Of a stretch of 40,184 bases of DNA, positions 1 to 18,014 are shown one piece after another (position 1 is the first letter of the stretch; every line of letters begins with the position of its first letter). The stretch is from assembly GCA_004796375.1 (NCBI GenBank), contig QZLA01000205.1, positions 1 through 40,184 of the forward strand, in the 5' to 3' direction. The translations under genes were made by a program, and so were the position numbers. The DNA comes from Desulfobacteraceae bacterium. Lineage in GTDB: Bacteria; Desulfobacterota; Desulfobacteria; Desulfobacterales; Desulfobacteraceae. Under the pieces are notes generated by a model. It saw only the letters and a list, made by a program, of their open reading frames with translations, did not search any database and was not told the DNA's origin.

Positions 1-605
1 CACGGAAGATCATATTTTTTGGTGTCTATGACTTTCATTCCATTGTTTTCCAGCAGACTGACCCATTCATTCCTCGTGGCAAACCGCTCAAAATCCTGCC
101 AGTCATCAGGCCCCTCTCCTGTCTTGTAGACCTTGTATATTGTTTCCAGGTCATGGCTATTGGGAAGGAGGATAACAGCCTTACCATCTTTTTTTAGGAC
201 CCTTGCCATCTCCCTGCATCCGGCTTCCGGGTTCATGTAGTGTTCCAGGATTCCAAGGTTGGTGATATAGTCAAATGAACTATCTTCCCAGGGAAGGGAC
301 TCGGCATCTCCACAGATAAATCGATCGTGCTGATCAGGATATCTGTCCTTTGCAAGACCAATTGCTTTTTCACTGATATCGATACCCACCGGGTCCAGGC
401 CGAATCTGAGTGCAAGGGTCACCAGCTTCCCAGTACCGCATGCCGCATCAAGCAGAGAGGCCCCGGGATGAGGGGATAAGAGCTTTAGCATGTATTCTGC
501 TTGTTGTGACGTATCGACATCTTTCATCCACCCTGAATACAAATTGTTGTATGACTGTTTGAGGTCTTCTGTGGTTTGAATGTTTTTTTTGTTGCGTAAC
601 AGCAT
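1..605 (-). CDS. Class I SAM-dependent methyltransferase; 3' end runs off the window start
   Basis: Reverse-strand translation from ATG at 605..603 gives MLLRNKKNIQTTEDL... with glycine-rich SAM motif I (LLDAACGTGKL) and an acidic residue at the end of strand 2 (VGIDIS). The reading frame continues open to position 1. Confidence 0.75.
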   Translation of the reverse strand, partial: MLLRNKKNIQTTEDLKQSYNNLYSGWMKDVDTSQQAEYMLKLLSPHPGASLLDAACGTGKLVTLALRFGLDPVGIDISEKAIGLAKDRYPDQHDRFICGDAESLPWEDSSFDYITNLGILEHYMNPEAGCREMARVLKKDGKAVILLPNSHDLETIYKVYKTGEGPDDWQDFERFATRNEWVSLLENNGMKVIDTKKYDLP

Positions 606-617
606 TGAATCTCCTGC

Positions 618-1643
618 CTATGCGTTCACTTCAGAATTTTGCTTTGCCTGCTTGTTTATAAAAACTGCTTTGATGCAGTCAGGCGATTGGAGTAATTCCT
701 CTTTAAGCCCGGGGGTATTGCTGAAACTGATTTGATGGGTGATGATTTGCCTTAAACTGTCTTTCCCTGACTTAAGCTGCTCAACAGCATCTTCAAAAAA
801 GAGGTTGGGGTATCCGAAGGCCCCTATGATTGATGCTCTTTTAAAGATCAAACTTTCAAAATTGAATGGAACCCAATGATCCCAATCACTGTCATTTAAG
901 CCGGCAATGACGATCAACCCGTCGTTCATCAGAAGTGTTACTGCGTCCTTTAAGGTTCCGGGAGGTGCGAATACCAGGATTTTGTTGGATATGGTTTCGT
1001 TTATTTCACCGGGTTTGAAGCATTTTTTAAATCCAAACTGTTCTGCCAGATCAAAGCACTTTGAACTCCTGGCACACCCATAAACTCCCGATGCCCCTTT
1101 TTGGATACACAGCCATCCTGCCATAAGCCCGATGGCACCCAGACCATAGATGGTGACACGGTCTTTTGGTCTTATTTGCGCTGCCTTTAGCACATCGTTT
1201 GCAACGCCAAGCGGCTCCACAAGGCCCAAAAGCGAGCCCTCCAGGCCCTCCGCATCAACCATAGATCTTTCGTGTGCCAGAAAAAACTGATTAAAGCCTG
1301 ATTTGTTAACGATGACATCTCCACAGTCCCGTGCTTTTCCAACCGTACAATGGTCACATACGCCGCAGGGCGCAGCATTCTTTACCGCCACCTGTTGTCC
1401 GGGTTGGAATTTGGAGGTGTTATCACCGCAATGCCTCACCTTGCCGCCAAATTCATGACCGATTTTTTCCCAGTCCTTTGATCGGTGTGCCATCCACAGC
1501 AGATCACTGTGACACAGCCCGCATGCCTCCAGTTCGATCAGATAATGTTCGGAGGGGATGGCTGAGATAGTTTCGATCTCCTCCTTGATCCGGTATGGTG
1601 CTTTAAAAAGAAAATTCTTTGACTGTACGGGTGTTATATCCAA
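618..1643 (-). CDS. Zn-dependent alcohol/sugar dehydrogenase of the MDR family (threonine/sorbitol dehydrogenase-like)
   Basis: 341 aa ORF. Catalytic-Zn motif GLCHSDL and the GHEFGGKV signature are present, as is the structural-Zn Cys cluster CGVCDHC. A Rossmann GxGxxG (GLGAIG) follows. Confidence 0.85.
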   Translation of the reverse strand: MDITPVQSKNFLFKAPYRIKEEIETISAIPSEHYLIELEACGLCHSDLLWMAHRSKDWEKIGHEFGGKVRHCGDNTSKFQPGQQVAVKNAAPCGVCDHCTVGKARDCGDVIVNKSGFNQFFLAHERSMVDAEGLEGSLLGLVEPLGVANDVLKAAQIRPKDRVTIYGLGAIGLMAGWLCIQKGASGVYGCARSSKCFDLAEQFGFKKCFKPGEINETISNKILVFAPPGTLKDAVTLLMNDGLIVIAGLNDSDWDHWVPFNFESLIFKRASIIGAFGYPNLFFEDAVEQLKSGKDSLRQIITHQISFSNTPGLKEELLQSPDCIKAVFINKQAKQNSEVNA

Positions 1644-1645
1644 TT

Positions 1646-2905
1646 TCAGGCTGCCCTTGGTTTACTTCTTTTATTCCAGATGGCGATTGATTTGTCATAC
1701 GCATTGAACAGATCTTTCATATACCGGTCTTTATTGTATAATCGGCACACTCTGTCGTAGCCTTTTTGTCCCATTTCACTTGCGCGCTTCTTGTCACTTA
1801 AAAGAAGATCAATTTTTTTTGCAAGGTCTTTAGGATTACCCATTTCAAAGTGATATCCTGTTTCGCCATTGGCCAGCCAGTCTTTGATCCCACCGGTATA
1901 TGACCCGATAACCGGTTTCATGTTTGCCATGGCTTCAAGCCCGACCAGGCAAAAGGTTTCCATCCACACAGATGGGATGATAATCGCATCTGCCATGGCA
2001 TACTTCAGCCTTGTTTTTTCGTATGACAGGATGCCTTCCAGGATGACTTGTTTAGAAAGCAGAGGATCGCTTTTAACCCTTTTTTCTATGGCCTCGTAGT
2101 GGGGAGGACCTCCGGTGACAAAATGAACCTTTACATCCCTGGTTTTCAAATATTTGACCGCATCCAGTGTGATATCAAACCCTTTTTCAGGAGACGCACG
2201 TCCCACCATCAGAATATGGTTTTCTTCTGGTTTATGAAGGGTGTCGATCAGCTCCTGTACTTCTTCTCTTGGCCTTATGGGTGTAAAGTTGGGAATCCAG
2301 TTGATCTGCTCATCTTTAAATCCGTTTTCCTTCATACACGCAATGGTCGCCCTGCTTTCCATGATAAATACCGGCATCTGTCTGTGTACATCAAAGTGTT
2401 TTCTGGTCCAGACGGCGATTTTTTCATGAAGGGTTTTTGGCTGATCCAGTGAGATGCACCCCTGATTGAGACATTCCCTGCCCATGGGGTATGGGCAGAT
2501 GGTTTTATTGTCGGGTAACAGTTTCCAATGGGTAAAGCAATAGAGCCTTGGGTCATGAATATTCCTGACACAGGGGATGGTTTTCATTAAAAACTTTACA
2601 ACATAGGGGTTCTGACAGCTGTGTATATGGCACACATCCGGTTTGTATTTTTTAATAATCCTGCCCAGTTCTCTGATACATTTATAGATTTTGAAATAGT
2701 AGAGGAAGGTAAATTGAGAAAAGGGCATCTCGATGTCAGGAACCTCGATTTCAACCCGTTGCCCTGTTTTTATCTGATTGGGATGAGCGTTCATAACCAT
2801 GATATTTTCGTGGCCAAGCTGCTCAACGGCATGCAGGACGTCAAACATCAACTTCTCTGCCCCGCCTATGGCAGTATACCAATCACAGATATGCATGATT
2901 TTCAT
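1646..2905 (-). CDS. Family GT4 (group 1) glycosyltransferase
   Basis: 419 aa. N-terminus MKIMHICDWYTAIGGAEK is typical of GT4. The C-terminal EX7E-type region reads EAMANMKPVIGSYTGGIKDWLANGETGYHFE. The stop is only 2 nt from the upstream gene, suggesting an operon. Confidence 0.85.
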   Translation of the reverse strand: MKIMHICDWYTAIGGAEKLMFDVLHAVEQLGHENIMVMNAHPNQIKTGQRVEIEVPDIEMPFSQFTFLYYFKIYKCIRELGRIIKKYKPDVCHIHSCQNPYVVKFLMKTIPCVRNIHDPRLYCFTHWKLLPDNKTICPYPMGRECLNQGCISLDQPKTLHEKIAVWTRKHFDVHRQMPVFIMESRATIACMKENGFKDEQINWIPNFTPIRPREEVQELIDTLHKPEENHILMVGRASPEKGFDITLDAVKYLKTRDVKVHFVTGGPPHYEAIEKRVKSDPLLSKQVILEGILSYEKTRLKYAMADAIIIPSVWMETFCLVGLEAMANMKPVIGSYTGGIKDWLANGETGYHFEMGNPKDLAKKIDLLLSDKKRASEMGQKGYDRVCRLYNKDRYMKDLFNAYDKSIAIWNKRSKPRAA

Positions 2906-3066
2906 CAGGTTTTCCTTAGTTTTCTCAATAACTTTTTGTACATCAATGACCTGTAAAGCTCTGAAGAAAGGACAAGCAAATCATTCCATTTTTTATATAT
3001 TTTCTCTTTCATGTGTTTCTCCTCTATCGAGAAAGAATGAACCGTAAAGTCGGCCTAAAAAGGGTT

Positions 3067-4023
3067 CTATAATGTTTCGTATGTATCCAGCAAAACCTGC
3101 AAGACGTGTTTTTCCGTCCAGTAGTTCTCCATGAATGCCCTGGACTGCTGCCCGATGGACTGACGAAGGTCACTGTCACCAATCAATGTGTTTAAAACAT
3201 CTGCTAATTCCTGTCTGTTTCTGGCAATCTGCCAGGGCAGCTGCTCCGCCCCTGTAAATTCCTTGATGCATTTGATGTTCCAGTCGTCAAGGCCGGCGAT
3301 GACCGGTTTGCCGTGGCTCAAGGATTCCAGGGATGCAATACCGAACCATCCCCTCATGTGATCAAAAATGATGTGACAGGCCTTTTTGATCCTGAGGCAT
3401 TCAAAATAGGGCGTTTTTTCAATGATAACCGTTTCAACGTTCGGATGAATTTTGGTCAACTCCGCCATGACCGATTTGAATACCTCGGTGTGCTTGTGAA
3501 ATTTCCTTGTGGGCGATTGACAGATTTTTATGCTTTCCCGGGTAAGGCTGAGTTCATACCTGGGCATGAACTGAACGTCGTGTATCGGAACAAGATTGGG
3601 CACCCATACGGCATCCCGGGCAACCTTCAAAAGATCCGGGGTACTTACAACGACTTGACGTTCAAGTTTTTTGTATTTCTCATTAAAAGCGTCTTTGTTG
3701 ATCAGAAAATCAGGATGACCGTGGTGATGGTGCAGTATTTTTTTCCCGCTGATATAGTCCCGGATAACCAGGGGGCCCAGATGGGAGTGCTCGTCTCTGA
3801 GCATGTGAAAGTGTACGATGTCTGAATCGGTGAGTAGCTGCTCGATCTCTCCAAAATCATCATCTTCAATGTCCGGAATATGGATATCGGATTCAAAATT
3901 GAACCCGTACCTTTCCTGGGTGGTGATCACCCGGCACGTGTGTTCTGAATACCGGTTGATGGCATTGCAAAACGCGATGGCCATTCCTGCCGGATCATTA
4001 TCCATGATCATTAATATTTGCAT
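3067..4023 (-). CDS. Glycosyltransferase-like protein (GT-B C-terminal domain)
   Basis: 318 aa. The C-terminal region ESLSHGKPVIAGLDDWNIKCIKEFTGAEQ resembles the nucleotide-sugar-binding half of group-1 glycosyltransferases. It lies in the same strand and cluster as the GT4 gene. Confidence 0.55.
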   Translation of the reverse strand: MQILMIMDNDPAGMAIAFCNAINRYSEHTCRVITTQERYGFNFESDIHIPDIEDDDFGEIEQLLTDSDIVHFHMLRDEHSHLGPLVIRDYISGKKILHHHHGHPDFLINKDAFNEKYKKLERQVVVSTPDLLKVARDAVWVPNLVPIHDVQFMPRYELSLTRESIKICQSPTRKFHKHTEVFKSVMAELTKIHPNVETVIIEKTPYFECLRIKKACHIIFDHMRGWFGIASLESLSHGKPVIAGLDDWNIKCIKEFTGAEQLPWQIARNRQELADVLNTLIGDSDLRQSIGQQSRAFMENYWTEKHVLQVLLDTYETL

Positions 4024-4130
4024 AGCTCCGCTCTGCTGGTTACAAGATTTTTATCCACAGTCTTGTCGTTCTATATCATTCATTATCGGCACAACTATTC
4101 AATCACTGAATAATTAGTTGGCCGACTCGA

Positions 4131-6011
4131 TCATAATTGATACTGACTCAGCCTTCTCAGCGCCGTTAAAAAACCCTGGCCATTATTCAGATGTCCCCTC
4201 CAGACTTCCGGCACCCAGGTATCCTGGTAACCGGAAAATAGCGGCATGATTTTGTCAAAGTCAATATCCCCTTCATGGATCTGCATCCCTTCTCCATCCA
4301 CACCATAGGCGTCTCCCATGTGGATATGGCGGATATAGGGATACACAATACGGACAAATTCGCCCAGGTCTTTTTCTTTTGCATTGCAGTAGAGTGCGGC
4401 ATGTGAAATATCAAATACAATATTGACATTGGTTTCTTTACAAAAACCTGCAATTTCATCAGGGTCCATAAAAAAATTGCCCTTCCAGGCACCTCCGAAA
4501 TACCAGGGATAGGGGGGGAGATTCTCCAATAACAGGTGACTGCCAACGGTATCAATCTCCTTAAGGGATTGAATCAGTTTTTCTCTTAACCTGTTTTTAT
4601 CTAATTTAGCTTTCAGGCTCATGGCGCCAGGATGGGCGATTAGTTTAGGGATTCCTTTGAAATGGGGTGCCAGTTTTGCCGTGAGGGCGGCAGTCGTGTT
4701 GACAAGGTCCACGGAGGCTTTCCGGATATCCTCGCTGGCACTGCACAGGTCCATGAGTTTGCCGTCCAGGTACTCGGCCACATGCACTACCAGTTCCTGA
4801 GAGTATTGGCGGGTTAAATCAAATTCAAGGTCAAGGTCCTTTTCCGCCAGATGGATTTCAATGGCTTTGGGGTTCAATTCGATGATGTCATGGAAGTCGG
4901 AAAATCTTGAGATAAGCCCCCATTTACTCTGAAATGATTTTTCAATGTCCCAATGACTGTCCTTGGCTGGATCAAGATCTCTTTCAAGGAAAACACCGTT
5001 TGCTTCAATATCCCTGTCCAGGGTCCGGCCGACCAGGTCATCCAGGTTGGACGGTGCAAGCCCTTTACCCGGTCCTTTTATTGAGACCATGTCACGGGTA
5101 ATCCGGGTGCCTTTTGACAGGAACCGGCTGGCGATGAGGCTTTTACCGAACACTTCGCGATTGAGCACTTCTCCCCGGAGCAGGAAACGATCCTCCTTGG
5201 CCATGGCAAGATCTGCAATCCGTATATCCCGAACCATTCGTTTAAATTCAAAGGGCTCAAGGCTGATTTTATGGTCTGGGCCATCCATCTTTTTATCCCA
5301 GGTGATGTGCTTCTCAATGATGGACGCTCCCATGGATGCGGCTACAAGCGGGATAACGATGCCGATGTCATGACCGGAATAACCAACAGGGACATTATAC
5401 TGCTTGAGCCAACCGATCATTTTCAGGTTCACTTCCCTGGGCCAGACCGGGTAGGCGCTTCTGCAGTGAAGAATAGCGAATTCGGCACCACAGTCCTTAA
5501 GCAGATCAATGGTTTTCCTTATCTCACCCCGGTAGGACATCCCGGTTGAAACTATCATGGGCAGGCCTTTGGAACCGACATGAGACAAAAGGTCCACGTT
5601 ATTCAGGTCAGCAGATGCAATTTTGTATGCATGGATATCCAATGTCTGGAGAAAATCGGCACTGGTCCTATCAAACGGCGTGCATATAAAGTCAAGGCCC
5701 TTTTCAATGCAGTAACCATTGAGCTGAGCCATCTCATTTTCTGACAGTTCGACCTGTTTCAGGATCGGGATCATGTATTGGAAATGCTGCTCATATCTTT
5801 CAGGGTGCTCCAATATTTCCCTCGGGTACAGGCTGGGCAGGTGGCGCTTCTGAAACTTTACGGCGTTTGCCCCAGCGCTCTGGGCTTCGTCAATCAACTG
5901 TTTGGCAAGATCTATATCACCGTTGTGATTAATGCCGATTTCCGCAATGATATAGGTCGGGCTTCCTTCCCCAACGGTTTTTCCATTGATATGGATCACA
6001 GAGGTGGGCAT
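4131..6011 (-). CDS. NeuB-family sialic/nonulosonic acid synthase with SAF domain, fused to a C-terminal xylose-isomerase-like TIM-barrel (sugar phosphate isomerase/epimerase) domain
   Basis: The ORF at 4131..6089 has its likely start at internal Met 6011..6009 (MPTSVIHINGKTVGEGSPTYIIAEIGINHNGD, the canonical NeuB N-terminus). A SAF domain follows (GEVLNREVFGKSLIASRFLSKGTRITRDMVSIKGPGKG). A further ~270 aa carry a TIM-barrel-like signature (LLLENLPPYPWYFGG...VNIVFDISHA...IRHIHMGD). Confidence 0.8.
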   Translation of the reverse strand: MPTSVIHINGKTVGEGSPTYIIAEIGINHNGDIDLAKQLIDEAQSAGANAVKFQKRHLPSLYPREILEHPERYEQHFQYMIPILKQVELSENEMAQLNGYCIEKGLDFICTPFDRTSADFLQTLDIHAYKIASADLNNVDLLSHVGSKGLPMIVSTGMSYRGEIRKTIDLLKDCGAEFAILHCRSAYPVWPREVNLKMIGWLKQYNVPVGYSGHDIGIVIPLVAASMGASIIEKHITWDKKMDGPDHKISLEPFEFKRMVRDIRIADLAMAKEDRFLLRGEVLNREVFGKSLIASRFLSKGTRITRDMVSIKGPGKGLAPSNLDDLVGRTLDRDIEANGVFLERDLDPAKDSHWDIEKSFQSKWGLISRFSDFHDIIELNPKAIEIHLAEKDLDLEFDLTRQYSQELVVHVAEYLDGKLMDLCSASEDIRKASVDLVNTTAALTAKLAPHFKGIPKLIAHPGAMSLKAKLDKNRLREKLIQSLKEIDTVGSHLLLENLPPYPWYFGGAWKGNFFMDPDEIAGFCKETNVNIVFDISHAALYCNAKEKDLGEFVRIVYPYIRHIHMGDAYGVDGEGMQIHEGDIDFDKIMPLFSGYQDTWVPEVWRGHLNNGQGFLTALRRLSQYQL

Positions 6012-6979
6012 TGGTTCTCCTCCACGGCCGTTTGCCAATAAATTAGAAGGTCTTTCAAGGTTTTGGTCAGCGGTATCATCGGTTCCCACCCGGTCAGTGT
6101 TCGGAAAAGGGTGTTATCACACACCATGATAGGGATGTCAGAAGGCCTCATGCGATCAGGGTTGGGTTCAATTTCAACCAAGACCCCGGAAATGTCCAAA
6201 AGCATCGAAAGAATGCTTTCAAGGCTGAGGGACTTACCTGATCCGATGTTATACGCCTGGCCGGGAAGGCCATGCTCAAGGGCGAGCCAGTAGGCTTTTA
6301 CCGCATCTCTGAAATCCGTGAAATCCCTGTGGGCCTCAAGGTTGCCCACCATGATGACGGGTTTGTTCCTGCCGGCCTTTATCTGGGCAATCTGCTTGGC
6401 AAAGTTGGATAGCGCGAAAATAGGACTTTGCCGTGGGCCGGTCAGGTTAAACACACGTACACGGATGATATCCATTCCGTAATTATGATGATACTGAAAG
6501 GCCAGCATATCCTGGGCGACTTTACTGACGCCGTAGGGACTTACCGGTTTGAACGGCACGGTTTCAGACACAGGCAGGTCACTTTCAGAAATCAGACCGT
6601 AGCTCTCCGAACTTCCTGTGACAAGGATTCGTGCATTAATGCTATTTTTCCGGACGGCTTCAAAGATATTTAGCTGGCAGGTGATGTTGTTTGAAATGGT
6701 TTGCACCGGATTTTTCCAGCTCTCTGCGACACTGGTTTGCGCGGCAAGATGGTAGATTTGATCCGGCCGCAGGTCCCTGATAAGGGTATTGACCGTTTCT
6801 GTGTTACACAGGTCACACTCATGCAGGTGGATCTGATTTTCAATTTGATGTAGAAACTTATGGCTGTCTCTGGGATGAGCAATGCCGTAAACCTCAATAT
6901 CCGGCATGGTCAATAGATATTCGGCAAGGTAACTGCCGGTCATCCCCGTAACCCCCGTGATTAGTGCCTTCATACCCAT
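5996..6979 (-). CDS. NAD(P)-dependent epimerase/dehydratase (SDR), GDP-mannose 4,6-dehydratase / GDP-4-keto-6-deoxymannose reductase-like
   Basis: 327 aa. N-terminus ALITGVTGMTGSYLAEYLL carries the GxxGxxG motif. The catalytic YxxxK appears in SPYGVSKVAQDML. The GNLEAHRDFTDFRD region resembles GMD/RMD family members. Confidence 0.8.
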   Translation of the reverse strand: MGMKALITGVTGMTGSYLAEYLLTMPDIEVYGIAHPRDSHKFLHQIENQIHLHECDLCNTETVNTLIRDLRPDQIYHLAAQTSVAESWKNPVQTISNNITCQLNIFEAVRKNSINARILVTGSSESYGLISESDLPVSETVPFKPVSPYGVSKVAQDMLAFQYHHNYGMDIIRVRVFNLTGPRQSPIFALSNFAKQIAQIKAGRNKPVIMVGNLEAHRDFTDFRDAVKAYWLALEHGLPGQAYNIGSGKSLSLESILSMLLDISGVLVEIEPNPDRMRPSDIPIMVCDNTLFRTLTGWEPMIPLTKTLKDLLIYWQTAVEENQCPPL

Positions 6980-7599
6980 AGCCTGGAGACCATCTTGATT
7001 TTGATTTGATCATCTATTTTACCTTCCAGCATTTCGAGAATCTCATTTTGTCTGGCAAAGGATGTGATCATCAACGCATCTGGCCGGATCTCGTTAATTT
7101 TTAAAGGGGGGTGTATCATGGTACCGAAGAACAGTTTACCGATCTTATTGGGATCATTATCCACCACACCTGTAAGTGTCAGCTCTGTCTTCTTGATCGC
7201 AGAATAAACAATTTCTGCCGTATCGGACGCGCCGTATAAAACAACGGTCCGGATCCCTTCAGCATAACTTTCTAGTAGGATTTCAACGATTTCACTGCGG
7301 ACTCCGGCATAAAACTGCACGATCTCTGCAGAAAAGGCCAGAAAATTGGTGGCAACGTACTCTTTGCCCTGATCCGTCAGGTGGTATGTCATGCTCCGGT
7401 TGGAGCTTCCTGAAGTGTAAATCAGGTTTTCACTGGAAAGCTCCTTGATGTAGTTATTGACCATTGAACTGCTGAGACTGGCTTGCTGCCCGAGAAATTT
7501 TTGTGTGATATCCGGATTCTTCTGTATTAATGAGAGGATGGAAAATTTGCGGTATTGTTTGCTGGGTTCCAGATAGTTTGACGAATATGGTTCAATCAT
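6970..7599 (-). CDS. Winged-helix transcriptional regulator with C-terminal Rossmann-like (CoA-binding/Rex-like) domain
   Basis: 209 aa. The N-terminal half is MarR/wHTH-like (SILSLIQKNPDITQKFLGQQASLSSSMVNNYIKEL). The C-terminal half is VVLYGASDTAEIVYSAIKK...GVVDNDPNK, like the nucleotide-binding domain of Rex/NeuD-type proteins. It is the first gene of the minus-strand glycan cluster. Confidence 0.55.
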   Translation of the reverse strand: MIEPYSSNYLEPSKQYRKFSILSLIQKNPDITQKFLGQQASLSSSMVNNYIKELSSENLIYTSGSSNRSMTYHLTDQGKEYVATNFLAFSAEIVQFYAGVRSEIVEILLESYAEGIRTVVLYGASDTAEIVYSAIKKTELTLTGVVDNDPNKIGKLFFGTMIHPPLKINEIRPDALMITSFARQNEILEMLEGKIDDQIKIKMVSRLWV

Positions 7600-7637
7600 T
7601 TTAGTTTACCCCACTTGACTGATCATTCAGTGACTGA

Positions 7638-7666
7638 ACAATATCAATGCTGGGATGCCAAGTCAA
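7638..7666 (-). promoter_or_regulatory. Putative sigma-70 promoter for the regulator/glycan operon (-35 TTGACT, 17-nt spacer, -10 TATTGT on the minus strand)
   Basis: On the minus strand, -35 TTGACT lies at 7666..7661 and -10 TATTGT at 7643..7638. It sits ~40 nt upstream of the regulator ATG at 7599 and overlaps the palindrome TTCAGTgACTGAA. Confidence 0.3.
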
Positions 7667-7753
7667 CTCAAACTTAACCTTCTTTATGGGGTATTCAGCT
7701 ATCCGTGGGGGTAAAAACTGTATCCCGTGAACCCTGTCATCGACTTGACTGAT

Positions 7754-8578
7754 TTACAACCCGACACGGTCATACGAGTGATAAAACGCGATCCGGTGGC
7801 TGATCTCCCCTCCCACCAGAATAATGGCGGCAAGAGATAAAGCGATCAGTTCAACCAGTGCTGCTTTGGCAAGGAGCAGGAAGATGACGCAAAGGATCAC
7901 CCCTGAGCCATGGAAGACCGGCCAATGTGAGCTTTTGGCCGGACGGCGTTTTTTTTTAAATCTCTGATACAACCCTAGGGTCATTTTGATCAGGCTCCCT
8001 GATACTGCAGCAATTATTGCCGCTTGAACGTAGATATCAGCAGTAACAGCGTCATGACCCGTGGAAGATGTCATGGCGCAGATGGTTTGCACGAGGGCAA
8101 ACTGAATGCCTCCCAGCACCAGTGCCGAGCCGACAAAGCTGAGCAGGGTGCCGGAATGGTTCCATGACGGAACGGTTTTCAATTGATACACCCGGGACAT
8201 GGAGTAAAGGAGTATGGCTCCGGCGAGGCTTGCGCCGGATAGAACGAAAACATCAAACTCTTTTGGCCTTATGGGAGTGGTAATGATCAGCAGCGCCAGG
8301 GCACCGGCATGGACATGGACAAAAAAAATCTCTCTGCTGAGCCAGGAGTGCCTGAGGTTGGCAATGGCAAAAAGACCGGCGCGGGGATTACTCAGGTGGG
8401 CAAGTGCAGCGGCCATTCCGGCAAAAGACAGGGCCAGGGCTGCGGTCAGGTGACTGATCACAGGCAGCCCCGTATTGGCGGTATTTATCATGAAATGTGC
8501 CGCCAGCAGGCACCAGATACTTCCGACAGACGCCTGGAAAAGCAGGGTGAAAGCCACCAGGCTCCAATGACTATGCAT
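7754..8578 (-). CDS. DmsC-family membrane anchor subunit of a DMSO-reductase-type molybdoenzyme
   Basis: A polytopic membrane protein of ~275 aa (282 aa if the start is at 8602). It lies immediately downstream of the DmsB/DmsA-like genes with overlapping boundaries. Hydrophobic helices run throughout the sequence. Confidence 0.65.
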   Translation of the reverse strand: MHSHWSLVAFTLLFQASVGSIWCLLAAHFMINTANTGLPVISHLTAALALSFAGMAAALAHLSNPRAGLFAIANLRHSWLSREIFFVHVHAGALALLIITTPIRPKEFDVFVLSGASLAGAILLYSMSRVYQLKTVPSWNHSGTLLSFVGSALVLGGIQFALVQTICAMTSSTGHDAVTADIYVQAAIIAAVSGSLIKMTLGLYQRFKKKRRPAKSSHWPVFHGSGVILCVIFLLLAKAALVELIALSLAAIILVGGEISHRIAFYHSYDRVGL

Positions 8579-9209
8579 CTTTATTCTCCTCAGGATTGGC
8601 AATGGTTCCCGTCACATCGTCTTGCGTACGGCTCATTCTGTGCGGTACCAGGACACTGCAGGGCGTTGTTATCTTGATGTCCGGCAGGGGGGCGATGTCC
8701 GGCTGGCTCCTGGCATCCTTTTCCAGTTCATCCCATGGACCGAAACCCAGTGCCCGGGTGGGACAGGCTGATACACAAGCTGGAGACCTGCCTTCAGACA
8801 GATAATCCTCGCAGAAATTGCATTTGGTCATCCGGCCGGCATCCGCATCAAACTGGGGAGCGCCATAGGGGCAGGCCCACTCGCAATACCTGCACCCCAT
8901 GCATTTGCCCTGATCCACTGTTACAATGCCGTTTTCATCCGGGTGCATGGCAGTGGTGGGGCAGACCTGGGTACAGATGGGATCCATGCAGTGGTTGCAG
9001 CTGACCGACACGTAGTAGGTAAACACATCCTGCATGAACGTACCGTCCGGCAGGGGCATCCACTGGCCGCCGCAATATTCAGCCACCCGCCGCCAACGCA
9101 GGCCCAGGGCCAGGTTGTTTTTATCCTTGCAGGCCACCATGCAGGTTTTACACCCGGTGCACTGTTGTGCATCCAGGGTAAAGGCCCATTTGTTCAGTTC
9201 CCGGGTCAT
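8571..9209 (-). CDS. DmsB-like 4Fe-4S ferredoxin-type electron-transfer subunit
   Basis: 212 aa with four Cys clusters: CTGCKTCMVACKDKN, CNHCMDPICTQVCP, CMGCRYCEWACP and CNFCEDY...CVSACP. It has no signal peptide. Its start overlaps the DmsA-like stop. Confidence 0.85.
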   Translation of the reverse strand: MTRELNKWAFTLDAQQCTGCKTCMVACKDKNNLALGLRWRRVAEYCGGQWMPLPDGTFMQDVFTYYVSVSCNHCMDPICTQVCPTTAMHPDENGIVTVDQGKCMGCRYCEWACPYGAPQFDADAGRMTKCNFCEDYLSEGRSPACVSACPTRALGFGPWDELEKDARSQPDIAPLPDIKITTPCSVLVPHRMSRTQDDVTGTIANPEENKDA

Positions 9210-11497
9210 GGGGATACCTTTCTCACCTCCACCAGGTTGGTGTGCTGGGGATTGCCTTTTGCCAGTGGTGACGGCCGCTGGCGGGTCAAAATATTAATGG
9301 ACCCGTTGGTATCGTTTCCCTGTTTGTCTGGCGTGTACCACGCTCCCTGGGGCAGGGAAAGCACTCCCGGCATGATTCGGGGCGTCACCTTGGCCGGGAC
9401 TTGTGTCTGTCCGCAATCGTTGAACACACACACAAGATCGTTGTGTGAAATGCCCCGGGCCTCGGCATCCAAGGGGTTGATCCACAAGGACTGTACGGCC
9501 GCCTCCTGAAGCCACGGATTGTTGCCGTAAGAGCTGTGGGTCCGCTGCTTATGATGGTGGCCTATCAGTTGAAGGGGATACCTGGCGGATTCAGGCGTAC
9601 CCGGCATCCCCCATGTCTGATGATATTCGGGAAGGGCACTGATCACATCACCATCCGGCAGTTGCCAGGCATGTGCAATATCCCACAAGCGTTTTGAAAA
9701 TATTTCGATCTTTCCGGATGGTGTTTTCAGCGGCGCCGCCTCGGGATTTTCCCGGAAATCCTTGAGCCCGACAATGGGCGGACCCTGTCTCTTCCACTTG
9801 AACAGGCCGGTTTGCATGGCCTGCTCGAAATTTTTCGGCAGGTCATCGCGTACCTGTCTGCACTGGTGGTACATGTATGTCACCCACTCATCCCGGGTGC
9901 GGTCTTCTGTGAATTCTCGTCCCACACCCAGGCGGTTTGCGATATCTGAACAGATTTCAAAAAGGGTCCGGCACTCTCCCAGCGGCTCTATGGCTTTTGG
10001 GCGAAGGATCAGTGCGGCCATCTCCACGCCGTATCCCTGGTAGGCAAGATCGCTCTCTTCAAAAACACTAACTCCGGGCAAGACAATATCCGCGTATGTT
10101 GCACTGCTAGTCATGACATTATCGATCAGTACAATCATTTCACAGGCCGTCTCATCCGACAGGATGTCATGGGTGTGACGGATATCCGAATGCTGGTTCA
10201 CCAAGGTGTTGCTGGCAAAACTCCAGATAAATTTAATGGGTGTTTCAAGGTGCTGCTTTCCCATCAGCCCGTGGGTGATGTCGGTAAACCCTTTGGGATC
10301 CTCGATGGCTTGGGTCCACAAAAAGCAGGGGATGGAGGTGCTGACCGGGTTGGATCCCGTGGGAATAGAGGGAAACGCAAAGCCGAAGGGTGCTTCCCGT
10401 CCGCCGCTGTTGCCGCCCTGGATGCCCACATTGCCGGTGAGGATGGGCAGCATGCAGATGGCGCGGGCGGTCTGTTCACCATTGGCATGCCGCTGAGGCC
10501 CCCACCCCTGGGCAATGTAGGCAGGCTTTGCCGTGCCGATCTCCCGGGCGAGCTGAATGATGCGCTCTGCTGGAATTCCTGTAATGCTCGATGCCCATTG
10601 AGGCGTCTTGGGGATACCGTCCGGCCCCGTACCCAGGATATACTCCTTGTAACTGTTTCCTGCTAAAAATCCTGGCGGCATGGTGGCGACATCATATCCC
10701 ACGCAATAGCGGTCCAGAAACGGTTGGTCCACCAGGTCCTCGGTGATCAGGACGTGGGCAAGGGCACAAACCAGGGCCGCATCCGTTCCCGGGCGAATGG
10801 GAATCCATTCATCTGCCGCAAGGACCGCGGTATCGGAATGCCGCGGATCGATGACAATAAGCCTGACATTGCTCTGTTTTTTGACCCGTGCAAGATCATA
10901 GGTGGAACCACCTCCGCTCATGCGGGTTTCGGCCGTGTTGTTGCCGAAAAAAACGGCAAGCTTGCTGTTGGCCATATCAGAGAGGTTATTGGCGCACTCG
11001 TGGACACCGTATGTATACTGAAGCCCATGGGTGATCTGGGCGGTGCTGTAGGAGTTGTAATGGTTGAGTTGGCCGCCCAGAAGATTCATCAGGCGGTCGA
11101 TCTGCTCGCGGCCGGAAACCACCCCTCCCAGGTTCCCGGTACCGTAAATGCGATGAACCGCCTCGTTACCGTGGGTTTTGATGACCTGGTCCAGTTTGGT
11201 GGCAATCTGTTCGATTGCTTCTTCCCAGGAGATGCGGGCAAATTGACCCTCACCTCTTTTCCCGGTCCGTTTGAGAGGATGAAGCAGCCGCTCGGGTGAA
11301 TAGATCCATTTTCGCAGGGCTCTTCCCCGAAGACAGGCCCGGATCTCGTGGGCACCAGGGGTGTCCTCCCCGGTGTTGTCGGTCTCGATTTTCACGACGG
11401 TCCCATCTTTCACATGCACGCGGAGGGCACAACGGCTGCCGCAGTTTACATTACAGACCGACCAGAGTATTTTATCAGGGCATGTGGTATCTGTCAC
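9206..11497 (-). CDS. Molybdopterin (bis-MGD) oxidoreductase catalytic subunit of the DMSO reductase (DmsA) family, lacking a Tat signal peptide
   Basis: 763 aa. The N-terminus ILWSVCNVNCGSRCALRVHVKDGTVVKIETDN aligns with mature E. coli DmsA (VIWSACTVNCGSRCPLRMHVVDGEIKYVETDN). The GTG start has GGAGG 7 nt upstream and an in-frame TGA immediately before it, so no twin-arginine leader is possible. Confidence 0.85.
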   Translation of the reverse strand: MTDTTCPDKILWSVCNVNCGSRCALRVHVKDGTVVKIETDNTGEDTPGAHEIRACLRGRALRKWIYSPERLLHPLKRTGKRGEGQFARISWEEAIEQIATKLDQVIKTHGNEAVHRIYGTGNLGGVVSGREQIDRLMNLLGGQLNHYNSYSTAQITHGLQYTYGVHECANNLSDMANSKLAVFFGNNTAETRMSGGGSTYDLARVKKQSNVRLIVIDPRHSDTAVLAADEWIPIRPGTDAALVCALAHVLITEDLVDQPFLDRYCVGYDVATMPPGFLAGNSYKEYILGTGPDGIPKTPQWASSITGIPAERIIQLAREIGTAKPAYIAQGWGPQRHANGEQTARAICMLPILTGNVGIQGGNSGGREAPFGFAFPSIPTGSNPVSTSIPCFLWTQAIEDPKGFTDITHGLMGKQHLETPIKFIWSFASNTLVNQHSDIRHTHDILSDETACEMIVLIDNVMTSSATYADIVLPGVSVFEESDLAYQGYGVEMAALILRPKAIEPLGECRTLFEICSDIANRLGVGREFTEDRTRDEWVTYMYHQCRQVRDDLPKNFEQAMQTGLFKWKRQGPPIVGLKDFRENPEAAPLKTPSGKIEIFSKRLWDIAHAWQLPDGDVISALPEYHQTWGMPGTPESARYPLQLIGHHHKQRTHSSYGNNPWLQEAAVQSLWINPLDAEARGISHNDLVCVFNDCGQTQVPAKVTPRIMPGVLSLPQGAWYTPDKQGNDTNGSINILTRQRPSPLAKGNPQHTNLVEVRKVSP

Positions 11498-11618
11498 TCA
11501 ACAACCTCCAAGGGTACGGATATGATTTGAGCGCCATGCTTTCTTCCTTTCTTGACCTTAGGTTATGCTTAACATATACCTCTTAGTTGAATTAACATAG
11601 GGTGAAGCCAAAAGGAAA

Positions 11619-12617
11619 TCAATACTCGTAGAACAGCTTTTGAACCTCCTCCCCGGTCCGGGGTTTTAACAGGGCCAGCATCAAGAGTATCCTGGCTTTT
11701 GCCGGATTTAACTCATCTGAAACAATAAACCCGTGGGCATCGTCATTGACCTCCACATTCCGGCCCACCGTGCCCGTGGGCACCCGGGAGGCCCGGACAA
11801 TGAAGATCCCCTTTTTCGCGAATTCTGCAGCCGCTTTGATAGATCCTTGGTTCATATTGCCATTTCCGTCTCCGGCAATCACAATCCCCCTGGCGCCTCT
11901 TGAAACCGAAGCGTCGATCAGGTCCGGCGGCATATCTGCACATGCATAGATGATATCCACCCGGGGAAGCGGCAGATCATAGTCGGTCGTGAATTCACTT
12001 TCACGGGTGTGTTTTCTGAAAGATCCCCTGAAAAATTTGACCTCTCCGTATATCACGGTGCCCATGAGCCCGGTCACCGGGGAGAGAAACGTTTCCACTG
12101 ACGTGGTGTTGGTCTTGGTCAGGGAGTGGGCACCGTGGATCCTGTCATTCATCACCACCATGACACCACGCGCCTTTGCTTCCGGGTCTGCAGCCACGGC
12201 CACGGCATTGAACAGGTTCAGGGGGCCGTCTGCACTGACAGCGGTTGACGGACGCATGGATCCGGTCATGATGACAGGTTTGGTGCAGTTGACCGTGAGA
12301 TTGAGAAAAAAGGCGGTCTCCTCGATGGTATCGGTGCCGTGGGTCACCACAATGCCGTCAATCTCCTGTTTTTCCAGGGTCTCATTGATTTTTCGGGCGA
12401 GCCGGGTCATAATCTCAAAAGACATGTCCTGGGAGCCGATATTGCAGACCTGCTCCCCATCAACGCGGGCAATCTGATCCAGATCCGGCACCGCCTTGAG
12501 CATCTCTTTGATATCAAGCTGCCCGGAGGTGTAGCCTGCCTTGGTGGAGGAACCTGCACGGCCGGCGATGGTGCCGCCGGTGGCCAGTACGTATATATCG
12601 GGTAGATTCTTTATCAT
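11619..12617 (-). CDS. L-asparaginase
   Basis: 332 aa. N-terminus IYVLATGGTIAG carries the TGGTIAG asparaginase signature. GTDT and other family motifs are present, and there is no signal peptide. Confidence 0.85.
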   Translation of the reverse strand: MIKNLPDIYVLATGGTIAGRAGSSTKAGYTSGQLDIKEMLKAVPDLDQIARVDGEQVCNIGSQDMSFEIMTRLARKINETLEKQEIDGIVVTHGTDTIEETAFFLNLTVNCTKPVIMTGSMRPSTAVSADGPLNLFNAVAVAADPEAKARGVMVVMNDRIHGAHSLTKTNTTSVETFLSPVTGLMGTVIYGEVKFFRGSFRKHTRESEFTTDYDLPLPRVDIIYACADMPPDLIDASVSRGARGIVIAGDGNGNMNQGSIKAAAEFAKKGIFIVRASRVPTGTVGRNVEVNDDAHGFIVSDELNPAKARILLMLALLKPRTGEEVQKLFYEY

Positions 12618-12633
12618 TTTTCTTTACTTTTCA

Positions 12634-14007: not shown

Positions 14008-14034
14008 CGCGTATCCTTGTACCGATAGCTGGTC

Positions 14035-14664
14035 TTAGGGTTTATACTGTCTGAGCGCATCTGCCATGTCACGGCACAACGACTCGAGATTCCGGCTCTG
14101 GGCGGCGGCAAAAGCTTCAGGGCTGTCGATCCCGGATTCCTGGGTATACCGGCTGGTACGGATCAGCACTAACGCTTTGTCCGGGTTTCGGATGACTTCC
14201 CACCGGGCTGCCAGCAGGGCATCCTTGCCGGGTGTGTTGTCCAAACGGATCACTTCGATCGGTACCTGGTAATCCAGGCGGGCACGGCTGTCCCATGACA
14301 ATACAATCACCCCATCCCTGTTCAGCAGGGTGGATAGCCGCTCCAAGGTGAGGCGGGAGATAGTATCCTTCAAAGGTTCTGCCCAGTTGTCAAACTCCAT
14401 GAGCTTGAGCCGGTTGGGCGCCGTCCGGGTGACCATCTGGGGCCGGTCCAGGTAGGGAGGGATTTTAAAGGGGCCCAGTCCGACCTTGATCACATGGTTT
14501 TGGTCCGCCAGCATATCCACGGATACCGTATGCGAATCAGGGTCCTGGGGTGTTGATTCCAGCAGGTAAAAACGGGTGGGTGCACTTTTACCGGTGCATC
14601 CGCCCAGAAAGATCAGTATTAAAACAAGCGCTGTCAGTCCATACACCCTATACGTTTTTTCCAT
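14035..14664 (-). CDS. ABC-type transport auxiliary lipoprotein (PqiC/DUF330-like) of the Mla/Mce system
   Basis: 209 aa. It has a signal peptide with a lipobox (LILIFLGGC). It lies immediately downstream of the MCE gene with a 3-nt gap. Confidence 0.65.
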   Translation of the reverse strand: MEKTYRVYGLTALVLILIFLGGCTGKSAPTRFYLLESTPQDPDSHTVSVDMLADQNHVIKVGLGPFKIPPYLDRPQMVTRTAPNRLKLMEFDNWAEPLKDTISRLTLERLSTLLNRDGVIVLSWDSRARLDYQVPIEVIRLDNTPGKDALLAARWEVIRNPDKALVLIRTSRYTQESGIDSPEAFAAAQSRNLESLCRDMADALRQYKP

Positions 14665-14667
14665 ATT

Positions 14668-16532: not shown

Positions 16533-16548
16533 TGTATCCCTGCCTTGC

Positions 16549-17754: not shown

Positions 17755-18014
17755 CGGATGGTCACAGAATCCAAGGCGGAATTTGCATCACTGGCACCTG
17801 AAGAAACCGTCAATCCGCGCTGCGGGACATTATACCGCACTGTTGGCAAACAGGATCTGAAAGCGGCCCCTAAAAGGTTTATTTGAAATTTAAGTGATAT
17901 TTCCTAAAATTTTATTTACACCGTTAGCGAAATAATGCAGACTGATCTGAATCCACGGGTATAACTTTGTAACATGAATCGCATTCAAACCAACTCATAG
18001 ACAGGAGAATTCAC

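Follow-up and report, generated by a model that had tools for sequence, protein, structure and literature searches.

Nonulosonic acids, among them sialic, legionaminic and pseudaminic acids as well as KDN, are found on capsules, flagella and S-layers, where they influence motility, immune evasion and recognition by phages. In known bacterial pathways the sugar is freed by the NDP-sugar hydrolases NeuC, LegG and PseG, and the KDN pathway of Bacteroides thetaiotaomicron comprises a KDN-9-P synthase and a KDN-9-P phosphatase of the HAD type. The canonical condensing enzymes, N. meningitidis NeuB (NmeNeuB) and C. jejuni PseI (structures 1xuu and 8h2c), consist of a catalytic barrel and a SAF domain, after which they end at ∼350 aa. 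A NeuB with more than these two parts has been described in Serratia marcescens, where the protein of the KL1 and KL2 capsule loci carries, besides pfam03102, an additional COG1082 sugar phosphate isomerase/epimerase domain (PMC9000132). In these bloodstream isolates neuA and neuB are the only dedicated genes and are required for KDN (the major sugar) and Neu5Ac (the minor one), as genetics and sugar analysis established, and neuB is needed for the capsule; the role of the extra COG1082 domain was outside the scope of that study (Anderson et al., 2022, PLoS Pathog; PMC9000132). Our literature searches for a NeuB, or any nonulosonic or sialic acid synthase, fused to such a TIM barrel found no report beyond the Serratia paper (PMC9000132). 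The LegI of Halorubrum, considered as a possible fused enzyme, turned out to be of normal size.

We analysed a stretch of 40,184 nucleotides from a Desulfobacteraceae bacterium (hereafter, the window), in which one gene encodes a protein of this longer kind (Table 1). A first reading made from the sequence only had taken the combination of domains to be undescribed, a view that is contradicted both by thousands of database entries and by the explicit remark on the Serratia marcescens NeuB (PMC9000132). In JGI annotations such proteins are labelled 'sialic acid synthase SpsE/sugar phosphate isomerase/epimerase' or '.../endonuclease IV', and the database entry that is 100% identical to the window protein carries the name 'acetylneuraminic acid synthetase'. 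The window protein is therefore to be regarded as another member of an already known, biochemically uncharacterised fusion family.

Table 1. Coordinates of the fusion gene, its domains and the neighbouring genes in the window.
Feature	Position	Strand	Remarks
NeuB-SAF-TIM fusion gene	4131..6011	minus	626 aa; ATG at 6011, stop 4131-4133
NeuB catalytic barrel, PEP-dependent aldose condensation domain (aa 1-272)	5196..6011	minus	Pfam NeuB
SAF (antifreeze-like) domain, aa 291-344	4980..5141	minus	Pfam SAF
C-terminal AP_endonuc_2/xylose-isomerase-like TIM barrel, aa 363-626	4134..4925	minus	
RMD-like GDP-sugar short-chain dehydrogenase/reductase, upstream	5996..6979	minus	Pfam GDP_Man_Dehyd/Epimerase
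Winged-helix (MarR-like) + sugar C-methyltransferase C-terminal-like domain	6970..7599	minus	Pfam HTH_24/MarR, Methyltransf_14
Conserved downstream gene, 318 aa, HHHHGHPD motif, GT4-like C-terminal third	3067..4023	minus	
GT4 glycosyltransferase	1646..2905	minus	Pfam Glycos_transf_1 E 2.4e-31, Glyco_transf_4
Zn-dependent medium-chain alcohol/polyol dehydrogenase	618..1643	minus	Pfam ADH_N, ADH_zinc_N
SAM-dependent methyltransferase-like ORF, cut by contig end	3..605	minus	motif LDAACGTGKL

Reading of 4131-6011 on the plus strand meets many stops, which places the gene on the minus strand. A GTG at 6089, the start of the mechanically derived ORF of 652 aa, was rejected, as it would entail an overlap of ∼90 nt with the upstream gene and as the alignments of homologues begin at the ATG at 6011, which is preceded by a GGAGGAG Shine-Dalgarno sequence located 5 nt 5' of it. 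The earlier reading gave no strand, and its residue numbers 380-652 follow the ORF from the GTG. The tri-domain architecture that it had put forward was confirmed by Pfam, with matches to NeuB at aa 39-272 (E 2.5e-75, 253.5 bits versus a cut-off of 22.1), to SAF at aa 291-344 (E 3.5e-7, 31.1 bits versus 21) and, for the C-terminal part, a significant match to AP_endonuc_2 at aa 400-622 (E 2.5e-20, 73.7 bits versus 31.1) that lies far beyond chance. By its Pfam match and its (alpha/beta)8 fold, the C-terminal domain belongs to the AP_endonuc_2/xylose-isomerase-like superfamily (PF01261). The motifs quoted for this domain were all located (LLLENLPPYPWYFGG at aa 493-507, IVFDISHA at 531-538 and IRHIHMGD at 560-567), its metal-ligand positions are present as claimed, and the continuation past the SAF domain amounts to an extra barrel of ∼265 aa in comparison with NmeNeuB and PseI.

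The NeuB-SAF half has the same barrel and SAF domain as the two canonical enzymes, at ∼30% identity and E of about 1e-46 to 1e-44 (6e-46 for 1xuu). Foldseek with a model of the full-length protein also recovered 1xuu (E 9e-27) but matched no barrels other than those of NeuB, DAHP synthase and KDO8P synthase and was uninformative on the C-terminal domain, of which a separate model was made afterwards. Eight catalytic positions, comprising two metal-binding His and the Glu, Lys, Gln, Ser and Asp that bind PEP or the aldehyde, are intact: E24, K52, Q54, K130, S133, H214, H235 and D246 align to E25, K53, Q55, K129, S132, H215, H236 and D247 of NmeNeuB, with none of these positions conserved in fewer than 141 of the 143 fusion proteins compared. 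The metal-binding His and the PEP-binding Lys and Ser are shared with PseI as well. The window protein nevertheless missed the NCBIfam equivalog cut-offs for NeuB (TIGR03569, 319.2 versus 399.65) and PseI (TIGR03586, 230.1 versus 340.25). The position of NmeNeuB Arg314, which we take to bind the N-acetyl group of ManNAc, is occupied by Gly313, 'VKRPGNG' of wild-type 1xuu aligning with 'IKGPGKG', and the residues listed for this column in the 143 fusion proteins are 77 Ser, 53 Gly, 5 Thr and 2 Cys, with no Arg among them. As the Arg314 equivalent is Gly or Ser in nearly all fusion proteins, a non-acetamido substrate would fit, and the loss of Arg314 together with the GDP-mannose-type neighbour described below suggests a KDN-like product for the window protein. 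With the N-acetyl-recognising residue missing, the name N-acetylneuraminate synthase is unsuitable for the fusion proteins and should not be borne by them in annotations.

The fusion is real, old and widespread in bacteria and archaea. At least 120 full-length homologues of the window protein were retrieved (59-73% identity, 618-660 aa, some on contigs of 6-7 Mb), and the NeuB-SAF-TIM order is shared by all of the best 120. The two parts form one ORF in all but three of 86 independently assembled loci, the exceptions being two genuine splits (L005 and L044), in which the TIM gene lies directly downstream of the NeuB-SAF gene, with a 4-nt overlap in L005, and one apparent frameshift (L015). At least 294 species of many phyla carry the fusion, complete genomes included, and its hosts include sulfate reducers and Chloroflexota as well as CPR bacteria, DPANN and haloarchaea. 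The TIM subfamily itself is small, with 627 representatives among 1.84 billion proteins, and is almost always found C-terminal to NeuB-SAF. Its subtype-specific residues are H460, E496 and N497, the plain subtype having H-E-N and the CBS-type N-Q-T; the CBS-type alone comprises more than 7,000 90%-identity clusters at E ≤ 1e-30.

Eleven polar residues of the TIM domain are invariant in the family (E385, H387, D392, H410, D534, H537, H564, D567, E574, E602 and H607). Searched against solved structures, the family profile matched MJ1311 at 7.8e-20, eight endonuclease IV (Endo IV) sequences at 5e-12 to 1.5e-4 and the best sugar isomerase/epimerase at 5.6e-4; judged by these scores, the domain is closest to MJ1311 and Endo IV among solved structures. 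HMM alignments, for which the E. coli Nfo sequence was verified, indicated that seven of the nine Endo IV metal ligands are kept (H410, H460, E496, D534, H537, H564 and E602). The remaining two, the Zn3 ligands D229 and H231, are absent together with their insertion loop and are replaced by an invariant G573-E574-G575, which speaks against a hydrolase. In the CBS-type sister subfamily the H109 equivalent is Asn or Ser and the E145 equivalent Gln, and the classical trinuclear Zn site is thus not a family-wide property, which weighs in the same direction. The set E496, D534, H564 and E602 is present in the window protein and its subtype (83/96), the first Glu being Gln in 50 of 51 CBS-type relatives. 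None of the curated NCBIfam cut-offs of characterised enzyme families was reached by the TIM domain: IolO scored 21 bits versus 300, FrlC ∼17-19 bits versus 305 and CbiR 17.6-21 bits versus 105 (E 2e-4), and the Nfo models were matched by some members only, at E ∼1e-5 and far below their cut-offs. That Nfo and CbiR scored no better than FrlC, Hyi and IolO, all of them far below the cut-offs, is a further point against a hydrolase.

The gene context of the fusion in the window is one of glycan biosynthesis and not of cobamide. The RMD-like gene overlaps the start of the fusion gene by 16 nt, and its product matches 2pk3 (GDP-6-deoxy-D-lyxo-4-hexulose reductase) at E 3.3e-81 and GDP-mannose 4,6-dehydratases at ∼1e-38; in 18 loci the gene directly upstream of the fusion is an extended SDR belonging to the BLAST cluster of this one (cluster 2), and the closely RMD-like form present in the window occurs in 12 loci besides this one. 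The winged-helix gene, the first of the conserved module, is found at position -1 or -2 in 25 loci; its product is without a SAM-binding domain, and C2185-like_N is annotated in its homologues. The 318-aa protein has no match to a Pfam family and only weak GT4 matches in NCBIfam, its family profile reaching PglA at E 0.004; PseG was considered as its identity, and only these weak GT4-like matches came up. Its gene occurs in 25 loci, nearly all of Desulfobacterota type, and takes the +1 position in 16 of them. For the polyol dehydrogenase, the best NCBIfam match was scyllo-inosose 3-dehydrogenase-like, below the cut-off.

Across 87 loci the commonest neighbour of the fusion is CTP_transf_3 (CMP-sugar cytidylyltransferase), present in 54 and usually located directly upstream. 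No neuA-like cytidylyltransferase was found anywhere in the window, whose glycan island is truncated at position 1 by the end of the contig. Epimerase_2 (NeuC/LegG), GT28 (PseG) and HAD phosphatases were not among the 25 top Pfam families of 148 neighbours in 26 diverse loci, which leaves no other recurring candidate for the sugar-freeing step. manC, manB and GMD were all looked for around the fusion in these 87 loci and not found, and for manC and manB this counts against the hydrolase proposed below; two extra loci have the order manC-manB-MTase-neuA-fusion in one row (Aeromonas) and manC-neuA-fusion (Ensifer), and these, together with the RMD-like neighbour, point to a link with GDP-mannose.

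From these data we propose that the fusion is a bifunctional enzyme that would make a nine-carbon 2-keto-3-deoxy sugar acid (KDN-type, 'sialic-acid-like') for a surface glycan. The SAF-capped NeuB barrel would condense PEP with a manno-configured hexose that lacks an N-acetyl group and is in its open-chain aldehyde form, a step supported by homology and by the intact catalytic residues. The TIM barrel, probably a metal-dependent enzyme of the MJ1311/Endo IV branch of the xylose-isomerase-like superfamily, may act as a phosphoester hydrolase and take GDP or phosphate off the sugar for the synthase, a reading to which we assign a probability of roughly 0.4; that a phosphate-containing handle is taken off at all is a step that we infer. 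DNA is not the expected substrate, given that the barrel is fused to a sugar-acid synthase within a glycan locus. In the favoured version, on which about two thirds of our confidence in a hydrolase rests, the barrel would act before condensation, cleaving GDP from a GDP-mannose-derived sugar and passing the free reducing sugar directly to the NeuB site; in the window this sugar could be GDP-D-rhamnose supplied by the RMD-like enzyme encoded immediately upstream. Alternatively, the barrel might dephosphorylate a 9-phospho product, as do KDN-9-P phosphatase or KdsC. A CMP-transferase, adjacent in most relatives and in the window presumably lost beyond the end of the contig, would afterwards convert the sugar acid into its activated, transferable form, and by analogy with known pathways the hypothesis implies that the fusion and the cytidylyltransferase would supply three activities from two genes. 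Two features of the window's own neighbourhood weigh against the hydrolase, since the GT-B-like 318-aa protein of its clade could itself be a GDP-sugar hydrolase and the RMD-like gene may merely supply D-rhamnose as a separate glycan component. We tentatively entertain the wider idea of an unrecognised phosphoesterase class on the Endo IV/MJ1311 scaffold (GDP-sugar hydrolase or ulosonate-phosphate phosphatase), which might replace NeuC, LegG, PseG or HAD enzymes non-orthologously and might provide at least 294 species with a two-gene route to sugars of the CMP-KDN type, with 9-deoxy-KDN made from GDP-D-rhamnose in the Desulfobacteraceae clade; on balance we would rather doubt than assert it in this full form.

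The sequence-only reading had instead coupled the condensation to an isomerisation or epimerisation. As stated this finds no support, as no cut-off of an epimerase or isomerase was reached and the domain is nearer to MJ1311 and Endo IV, and a TIM barrel that isomerises, epimerises or dehydrates sugars with the help of a metal is, in our view, somewhat less likely than the hydrolase. The barrel could in that case be an aldose 2-epimerase or ketose-aldose isomerase making the manno-aldose from a gluco- or keto-sugar, its unfavourable equilibrium being pulled by the irreversible PEP condensation, or could work on the 2-keto-3-deoxy product, with elimination at C4 followed by rehydration as one example. 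Isomerases, epimerases or dehydratases make up most of the superfamily's characterised small-molecule enzymes, and this chemistry would agree with the membership in Pfam AP_endonuc_2, with the weak NCBIfam matches to IolO (best 1.2e-7), FrlC and Hyi, and with the presence of the E-D-H-E metal set and of the D-x-x-H His of ketose 3-epimerases (E496, D534, H537, H564 and E602). To our knowledge, C2 has to be in the manno or altro configuration in every nonulosonic acid pathway, and the loci contain no recurring 2-epimerase. On the other hand, the curated epimerase and isomerase models were not reached, and Endo IV sequences rank several orders of magnitude above the sugar enzymes in the profile search against solved structures. 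H410 and H460, the equivalents of Endo IV Zn1 ligands, are conserved, and we know of no sugar epimerase that uses these positions. In the ketose 3-epimerases (DTE/DPE, UlaE, FrlC and IolO) both Glu of the E-D-H-E site are also catalytic bases, yet one of them is Gln in the CBS-type subfamily. Free glucose, fructose and GlcNAc are, as far as we know, not normal intracellular pools, so that, beside an isomerase, the phosphate or nucleotide would still have to be removed in a separate step. Epimerisation would, moreover, be unnecessary if mannose derivatives are the feedstock, as suggested for Serratia (PMC9000132) and by the GDP-mannose-linked loci.

Some other chemistry, such as the multinuclear-iron oxidation of MNIO/DUF692-like proteins, or a non-catalytic role, structural or regulatory, in the NeuB dimer, seems distinctly improbable. 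Single family members match MNIO models weakly, and much more weakly than MJ1311 and Endo IV, and an O2-dependent reaction is unlikely in a member of the Desulfobacteraceae, which are expected to be strictly anaerobic. The His- and carboxylate-rich invariant sites would be compatible with a di- or tri-iron centre, and the related CbiR is oxygen-sensitive (PMC7733943); the eleven invariant polar residues at the catalytic face of the barrel, however, argue for catalysis and against a purely structural role. That adjacent neuB and TIM-barrel genes were joined by a sequencing or assembly error can be dismissed, for even though the contig stems from a metagenome-assembled genome and rare split versions exist, the same fusion in many independent assemblies excludes a merger by frameshift or mis-assembly, with a continuous ORF of equal length in more than 80 independent loci, complete chromosomes and the cultured isolates Desulfamplus magnetovallimortis, Desulfatiferula olefinivorans and Desulfofustis glycolicus among them, and with a linker region that is conserved in the alignment.

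The large fusion family extends into lineages in which nonulosonic acids have barely been studied. If the TIM barrel indeed unmasks the sugar, this would explain how KDN-type sugars can arise from only two genes in many organisms and would bring a new small-molecule chemistry to the Endo IV branch of the TIM-barrel superfamily.

Compared with known systems, the barrel differs from its closest match among solved structures, MJ1311 of Methanocaldococcus jannaschii (3wqo, 'D-tagatose 3-epimerase-like protein'), in being fused and not stand-alone and in having G-E-G where MJ1311, which reportedly keeps all nine Endo IV ligands, has D-E-H. Endo IV (Nfo; 1qtw, 5zhz and 2x7v) likewise possesses D229, H231 and their loop, without which the window domain has to do. 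The same phosphate- or nucleotide-removing steps surround the NeuB-type condensation in the B. thetaiotaomicron KDN pathway and in pathways with NeuC, LegG or PseG, but the HAD fold of KDN-9-P phosphatase and the GT-B fold of the latter three are unrelated to the TIM barrel, to which an equivalent function is ascribed here as a hypothesis. Within the superfamily, the phosphodiesterase CbiR acts on a small molecule, its leaving group being a sugar hydroxyl (PMC7733943), and offers a precedent for the proposed phosphodiesterase chemistry, although its substrate and context differ and the window domain is not a member of its family. The Serratia NeuB, as far as its published description goes, is like the window protein in combining NeuB with a COG1082-type barrel (PMC9000132), whereas the window gene belongs to a Desulfobacteraceae metagenome-assembled genome and shares its module with genes for an RMD-like SDR, a winged-helix protein and a GT-B-like protein. 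The pairing of neuB with neuA in Serratia is in turn matched by that of the fusion with CTP_transf_3 in 54 of the 87 loci.

An open frame spans 4131-6011 on the minus strand upon translation; the position assigned to the gene by the sequence-only reading stood, and the strand is minus, the plus strand of the same span being full of stops. The mechanically called ORF begins with a GTG at 6089 and encodes 652 aa. This start was dropped in favour of the ATG at 6011, as the latter is preceded at 5 nt by a Shine-Dalgarno-like GGAGGAG and homologues of 621-630 aa align from it with a coverage of 99-100%, giving a protein of 626 aa. Pfam matches bore out the proposed identity of the protein as a NeuB domain, a SAF domain and an AP_endonuc_2 (TIM) barrel, and all three motifs that had been quoted from it were located (aa 493-507, 531-538 and 560-567). 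The tri-domain observation is correct, far beyond chance. The identical protein is named 'acetylneuraminic acid synthetase [Desulfobacteraceae bacterium]' at NCBI. In a full-length AlphaFold model (pTM 0.51) the relative placement of the two barrels was not predicted and the invariant loops PPYPWYFGG (aa 501-513) and DGEG (aa 568-575) had a pLDDT <50, the stretches aa 185-191 and 269-288 being flagged alongside them; both loops were confident in a domain-only model.

Domains of the fusion protein (aa, counted from the ATG at 6011) and genes of the surrounding row (nucleotide positions)
Feature	Position	Strand	Remarks
NeuB domain	aa 39-272	-	Pfam E 2.5e-75
SAF domain	aa 291-344	-	Pfam E 3.5e-7
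AP_endonuc_2 domain	aa 400-622	-	Pfam E 2.5e-20, 73.7 bits (gathering score 31.1)
Winged-helix protein	6970-7599	-	209 aa; also a domain resembling the C-terminal one of sugar C-methyltransferases
SDR	5996-6979	-	stop overlaps fusion start by 16 nt
NeuB-SAF-TIM fusion	4131-6011	-	
318-aa protein	3067-4023	-	no Pfam match
GT4 glycosyltransferase	1646-2905	-	
Zn-dependent dehydrogenase	618-1643	-	
Methyltransferase-like ORF	3-605	-	truncated

NeuB and AP_endonuc_2 were found together in all 120 best homologues (59-73% identity, 618-663 aa), some on contigs of 6-7 Mb and some from species in culture, Desulfamplus magnetovallimortis and Desulfatiferula olefinivorans among them. When each species was represented by one genome, at least 294 species had a relative of the TIM domain, and the best 80 loci were kept. 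These taxa included Desulfobacterota, Anaerolineales, an anammox planctomycete, Saccharibacteria and other CPR lineages, Bacillota, SAR11, cyanobacteria, Roseibium, Leptospiraceae and Gemmatimonadota, and, among the archaea, Woesearchaeota, Nanoarchaeia and haloarchaea (Natronococcus, Halogeometricum). When ORFs were called on the loci, NeuB-SAF and TIM shared one frame in every locus except L015, with an apparent frameshift, and the woesearchaeal L044, where a 348-aa NeuB-SAF gene is followed by a 318-aa TIM gene (8930-10963). On the metagenomic contig L005, a 349-aa NeuB-SAF gene overlaps a stand-alone 278-aa TIM gene by 4 nt. An assembly artefact, such as a missed stop or frameshift between the domains, was excluded, as the same fusion is continuous in nearly all loci and recurs across many species, large contigs and cultured isolates. 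The fusion is genuine, ancient and widely distributed.

A search with only the TIM domain as query, covering 1.84 billion representative proteins, yielded 627 matches at E <= 1e-3; the full-length ones were fusions of 600-660 aa, fusions of about 750 aa or stand-alone proteins of about 270 aa. The fusions of about 750 aa proved to be CBS-NeuB-SAF-TIM proteins (hereafter CBS-type), which are very abundant (>7,400 clusters at 90% identity). The TIM subfamily is linked to NeuB in function. Among the variants, a nanoarchaeal locus (L054) carries an extra 271-aa NeuB-like gene (8062-8877) directly upstream of a complete fusion, the fusions of Gemmatimonadota (L055, L057, L061, L080) and Kiritimatiellia (L049) extend about 130-150 aa beyond TIM to 765-870 aa, and that of L084 is lengthened at its N-terminus by about 300 aa to a total of 940 aa.

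The NeuB half aligned with Neisseria meningitidis NeuB (NmeNeuB; 1xuu, E 6e-46), as well as with Leptospira NeuB, Campylobacter jejuni PseI and Bacillus subtilis SpsE. As the metal-, PEP- and aldehyde-binding residues of NmeNeuB are kept in at least 141 of 143 fusion proteins, its condensation chemistry is expected to be intact. Neither for Neu5Ac synthase nor for PseI did the protein reach the NCBIfam equivalog cut-off. Arg314 in the SAF domain of NmeNeuB, which binds the acetamido group of ManNAc, aligns with Gly313 of the window fusion; nearly all of the 143 fusion proteins carry Gly or Ser at this position, and Arg was absent among the residues listed for them. Furthermore, of the residues found family-wide in the fusion NeuB domains (R56, D114, D135 and H247), R56 and H247 have no match in NmeNeuB. 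The substrate is therefore probably one other than ManNAc.

The barrel fold by itself does not discriminate between candidate chemistries. A profile built from 19 diverse TIM family members and searched against all PDB sequences had MJ1311 as its top match (7.8e-20), followed by eight endonuclease IV (Endo IV)/APN1 sequences (5e-12 to 1.5e-4), the first sugar enzymes appearing at 5.6e-4, which places the barrel on the Endo IV/MJ1311 side of the superfamily. In NCBIfam, members gave weak matches, far below the cut-offs, across FrlC, Hyi, CbiR, Nfo, IolO and UlaE; the domain reaches, and belongs to, none of the characterised families. The nine Zn ligands of Escherichia coli Nfo, whose sequence was verified against 1qtw, were mapped via HMM alignments, and seven of these positions are present in the window fusion (H69=H410, H109=H460, E145=E496, D179=D534, H182=H537, H216=H564 and E261=E602). 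The other two, D229 and H231, are part of an insertion specific to Endo IV, where the fusion family has an invariant G-E574-G. The four-ligand set of ketose 3-epimerases is also present. Polar residues invariant among 118 diverse members are E385, H387, D392, H410, D534, H537, H564, D567, E574, E602 and H607. Positions 460/496/497 split the family cleanly, being H-E-N in 83 of 96 fusions without CBS, the window protein included, and N/S-Q-T in 50 of 51 CBS-type proteins, which thus lose two ligands of the Endo IV Zn1 site and are without the Glu that serves ketose 3-epimerases as a catalytic base. Metal content or chemistry may differ between the two subtypes.

Clustering of the neighbours in 87 fusion loci revealed a CTP_transf_3 cytidylyltransferase as the only widely shared partner (54 loci, directly upstream in 30). 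An extended SDR occurred in 28 loci, and the winged-helix and 318-aa proteins in 25 each, nearly all of Desulfobacterota type. The variable neighbours, serving tailoring and transfer, included methyltransferases, DegT aminotransferases, radical SAM enzymes, Maf/MptE-like proteins and GT2/GT4, with KpsC/S-like genes, PAPS synthesis and sulfotransferases in Anaerolineales. In the latter (L028-L048) a fixed row of ATP-sulfurylase/APS-kinase, adh_short SDR, CTP_transf_3, fusion and a KpsC/KpsS-like Capsule_synth gene lies near several sulfotransferases and a GFO/IDH/MocA oxidoreductase, which hints at Chloroflexota glycans with a sulfated ulosonic acid. A Pfam census of 148 immediate neighbours at 26 diverse loci contained CTP_transf_3, Epimerase/GDP_Man_Dehyd, methyltransferases, GT2, adh_short and MptE-like families, and neither Epimerase_2 (NeuC/LegG), GT28 (PseG) nor HAD was among its 25 most frequent families. 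The gene order is manC-manB-methyltransferase-CTP_transf_3-fusion in Aeromonas and manC-CTP_transf_3-fusion-GT4 in Ensifer canadensis; beyond these two, neither manC nor manB lay near the fusion in the 87 loci surveyed.

In the window, the fusion is the third gene of a co-directional, tightly packed row. The SDR is, by its sequence, a close relative of RMD (GDP-6-deoxy-D-lyxo-4-hexulose reductase, 2pk3; E 3.3e-81), matching GDP-mannose 4,6-dehydratases far more poorly (about 1e-38). The winged-helix protein, conserved in its 25 loci as the first or second gene upstream of the fusion, combines a MarR-like winged helix with a Methyltransf_14/C2185-like_N domain resembling an NDP-sugar-binding C-terminal domain, had no SAM-binding domain, and may be a regulator sensing a nucleotide sugar. 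The 318-aa protein, directly downstream of the fusion in 16 of its 25 loci, carries a His-rich stretch that hardly varies (consensus ILHHHHGHPD), resembles GT4 in its C-terminal third, and could be a glycosyltransferase or a GDP-sugar hydrolase. The G+C content is 0.45-0.47 over the row (1-8000) versus 0.53-0.56 at 8000-18000, the row runs off the contig at position 1, and neither a cytidylyltransferase nor a Maf gene was found in the window, suggesting a horizontally mobile glycosylation island that was partly captured. The higher-G+C region holds DMSO-reductase, asparaginase and Mla-like genes. The rest of the window is ordinary-looking Desulfobacterota housekeeping (7754-11497, 18015-18773, 18940-21240): an operon encodes the catalytic, 4Fe-4S and DmsC-like anchor subunits of a molybdoenzyme of the DMSO-reductase family, and further genes encode a multihaem protein of the cytochrome c3 family and two GGDEF diguanylate cyclases.

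The fusion is a dedicated two-enzyme protein, partnered in most genomes by a CMP-transferase gene. Every known CMP-ulosonic acid route has one step that strips phosphate or nucleotide from the sugar, for example KdsC, the Neu5Ac-9-P and KDN-9-P phosphatases, NeuC, LegG or PseG. The hexoses available in the cell carry phosphate or a nucleotide, whereas NeuB requires the C1 aldehyde to be free and cytidylyltransferases act on the unphosphorylated acid. The TIM barrel is the only always-present catalytic domain without an assigned role, and no removal enzyme recurs beside the fusion in the Pfam census of neighbours. CbiR, of the same superfamily, is a small-molecule phosphodiesterase with a sugar hydroxyl as leaving group (PMC7733943). 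A mannose-derived feedstock is indicated by the KDN of Serratia, by manC/manB in the gene rows of Aeromonas and Ensifer, and by the window's RMD-like gene. From the missing removal step, the Endo IV/MJ1311 side, the CbiR precedent and this feedstock, we favour a phosphoester hydrolase as the likely identity of the barrel, with a probability of about 0.4. It would hydrolyse a GDP-sugar just before NeuB condensation, or else act after condensation as a 9-phosphate phosphatase; the former is more likely, since the product of an RMD-type enzyme is a 6-deoxy sugar, on which no 6-phosphate can sit. Against a hydrolase, the third Endo IV metal site is remodelled, two further Endo IV ligands are lost in the CBS-type, and the weak family matches are evenly spread over hydrolases and epimerases alike. 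The GT-B-like 318-aa neighbour could itself be the hydrolase in the window's clade, and the RMD-like gene may do no more than provide the same glycan with D-rhamnose. An isomerase or epimerase, as the sequence-only reading had it in coupling PEP condensation to isomerisation or epimerisation, is a somewhat less probable alternative, epimerisation not being required with a mannose-derived feedstock; that reading is partly right, as its domain identities hold, whereas its novelty does not and its specific chemistry is not borne out. What the barrel does is a directly testable question with a plausible new answer.

The window protein, from a Desulfobacteraceae MAG, belongs to a large, previously noticed fusion family. 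The sequence-only reading did not recognise the combination as described; its architecture has already been noticed, with a genetic link to KDN (PMC9000132); no other papers on it were found in the open-access literature. The variable region of the Serratia marcescens KL1/KL2 capsule loci begins with neuA and neuB, and neuB is required for a thiobarbituric-acid-reactive sugar and for capsule, the sugars being KDN and Neu5Ac, at about 20:1 (Anderson et al. 2022, PMC9000132). By its published description, as a NeuB with an additional COG1082 domain, Serratia NeuB shares the architecture of the window fusion, and KDN production needs Serratia neuB (PMC9000132).
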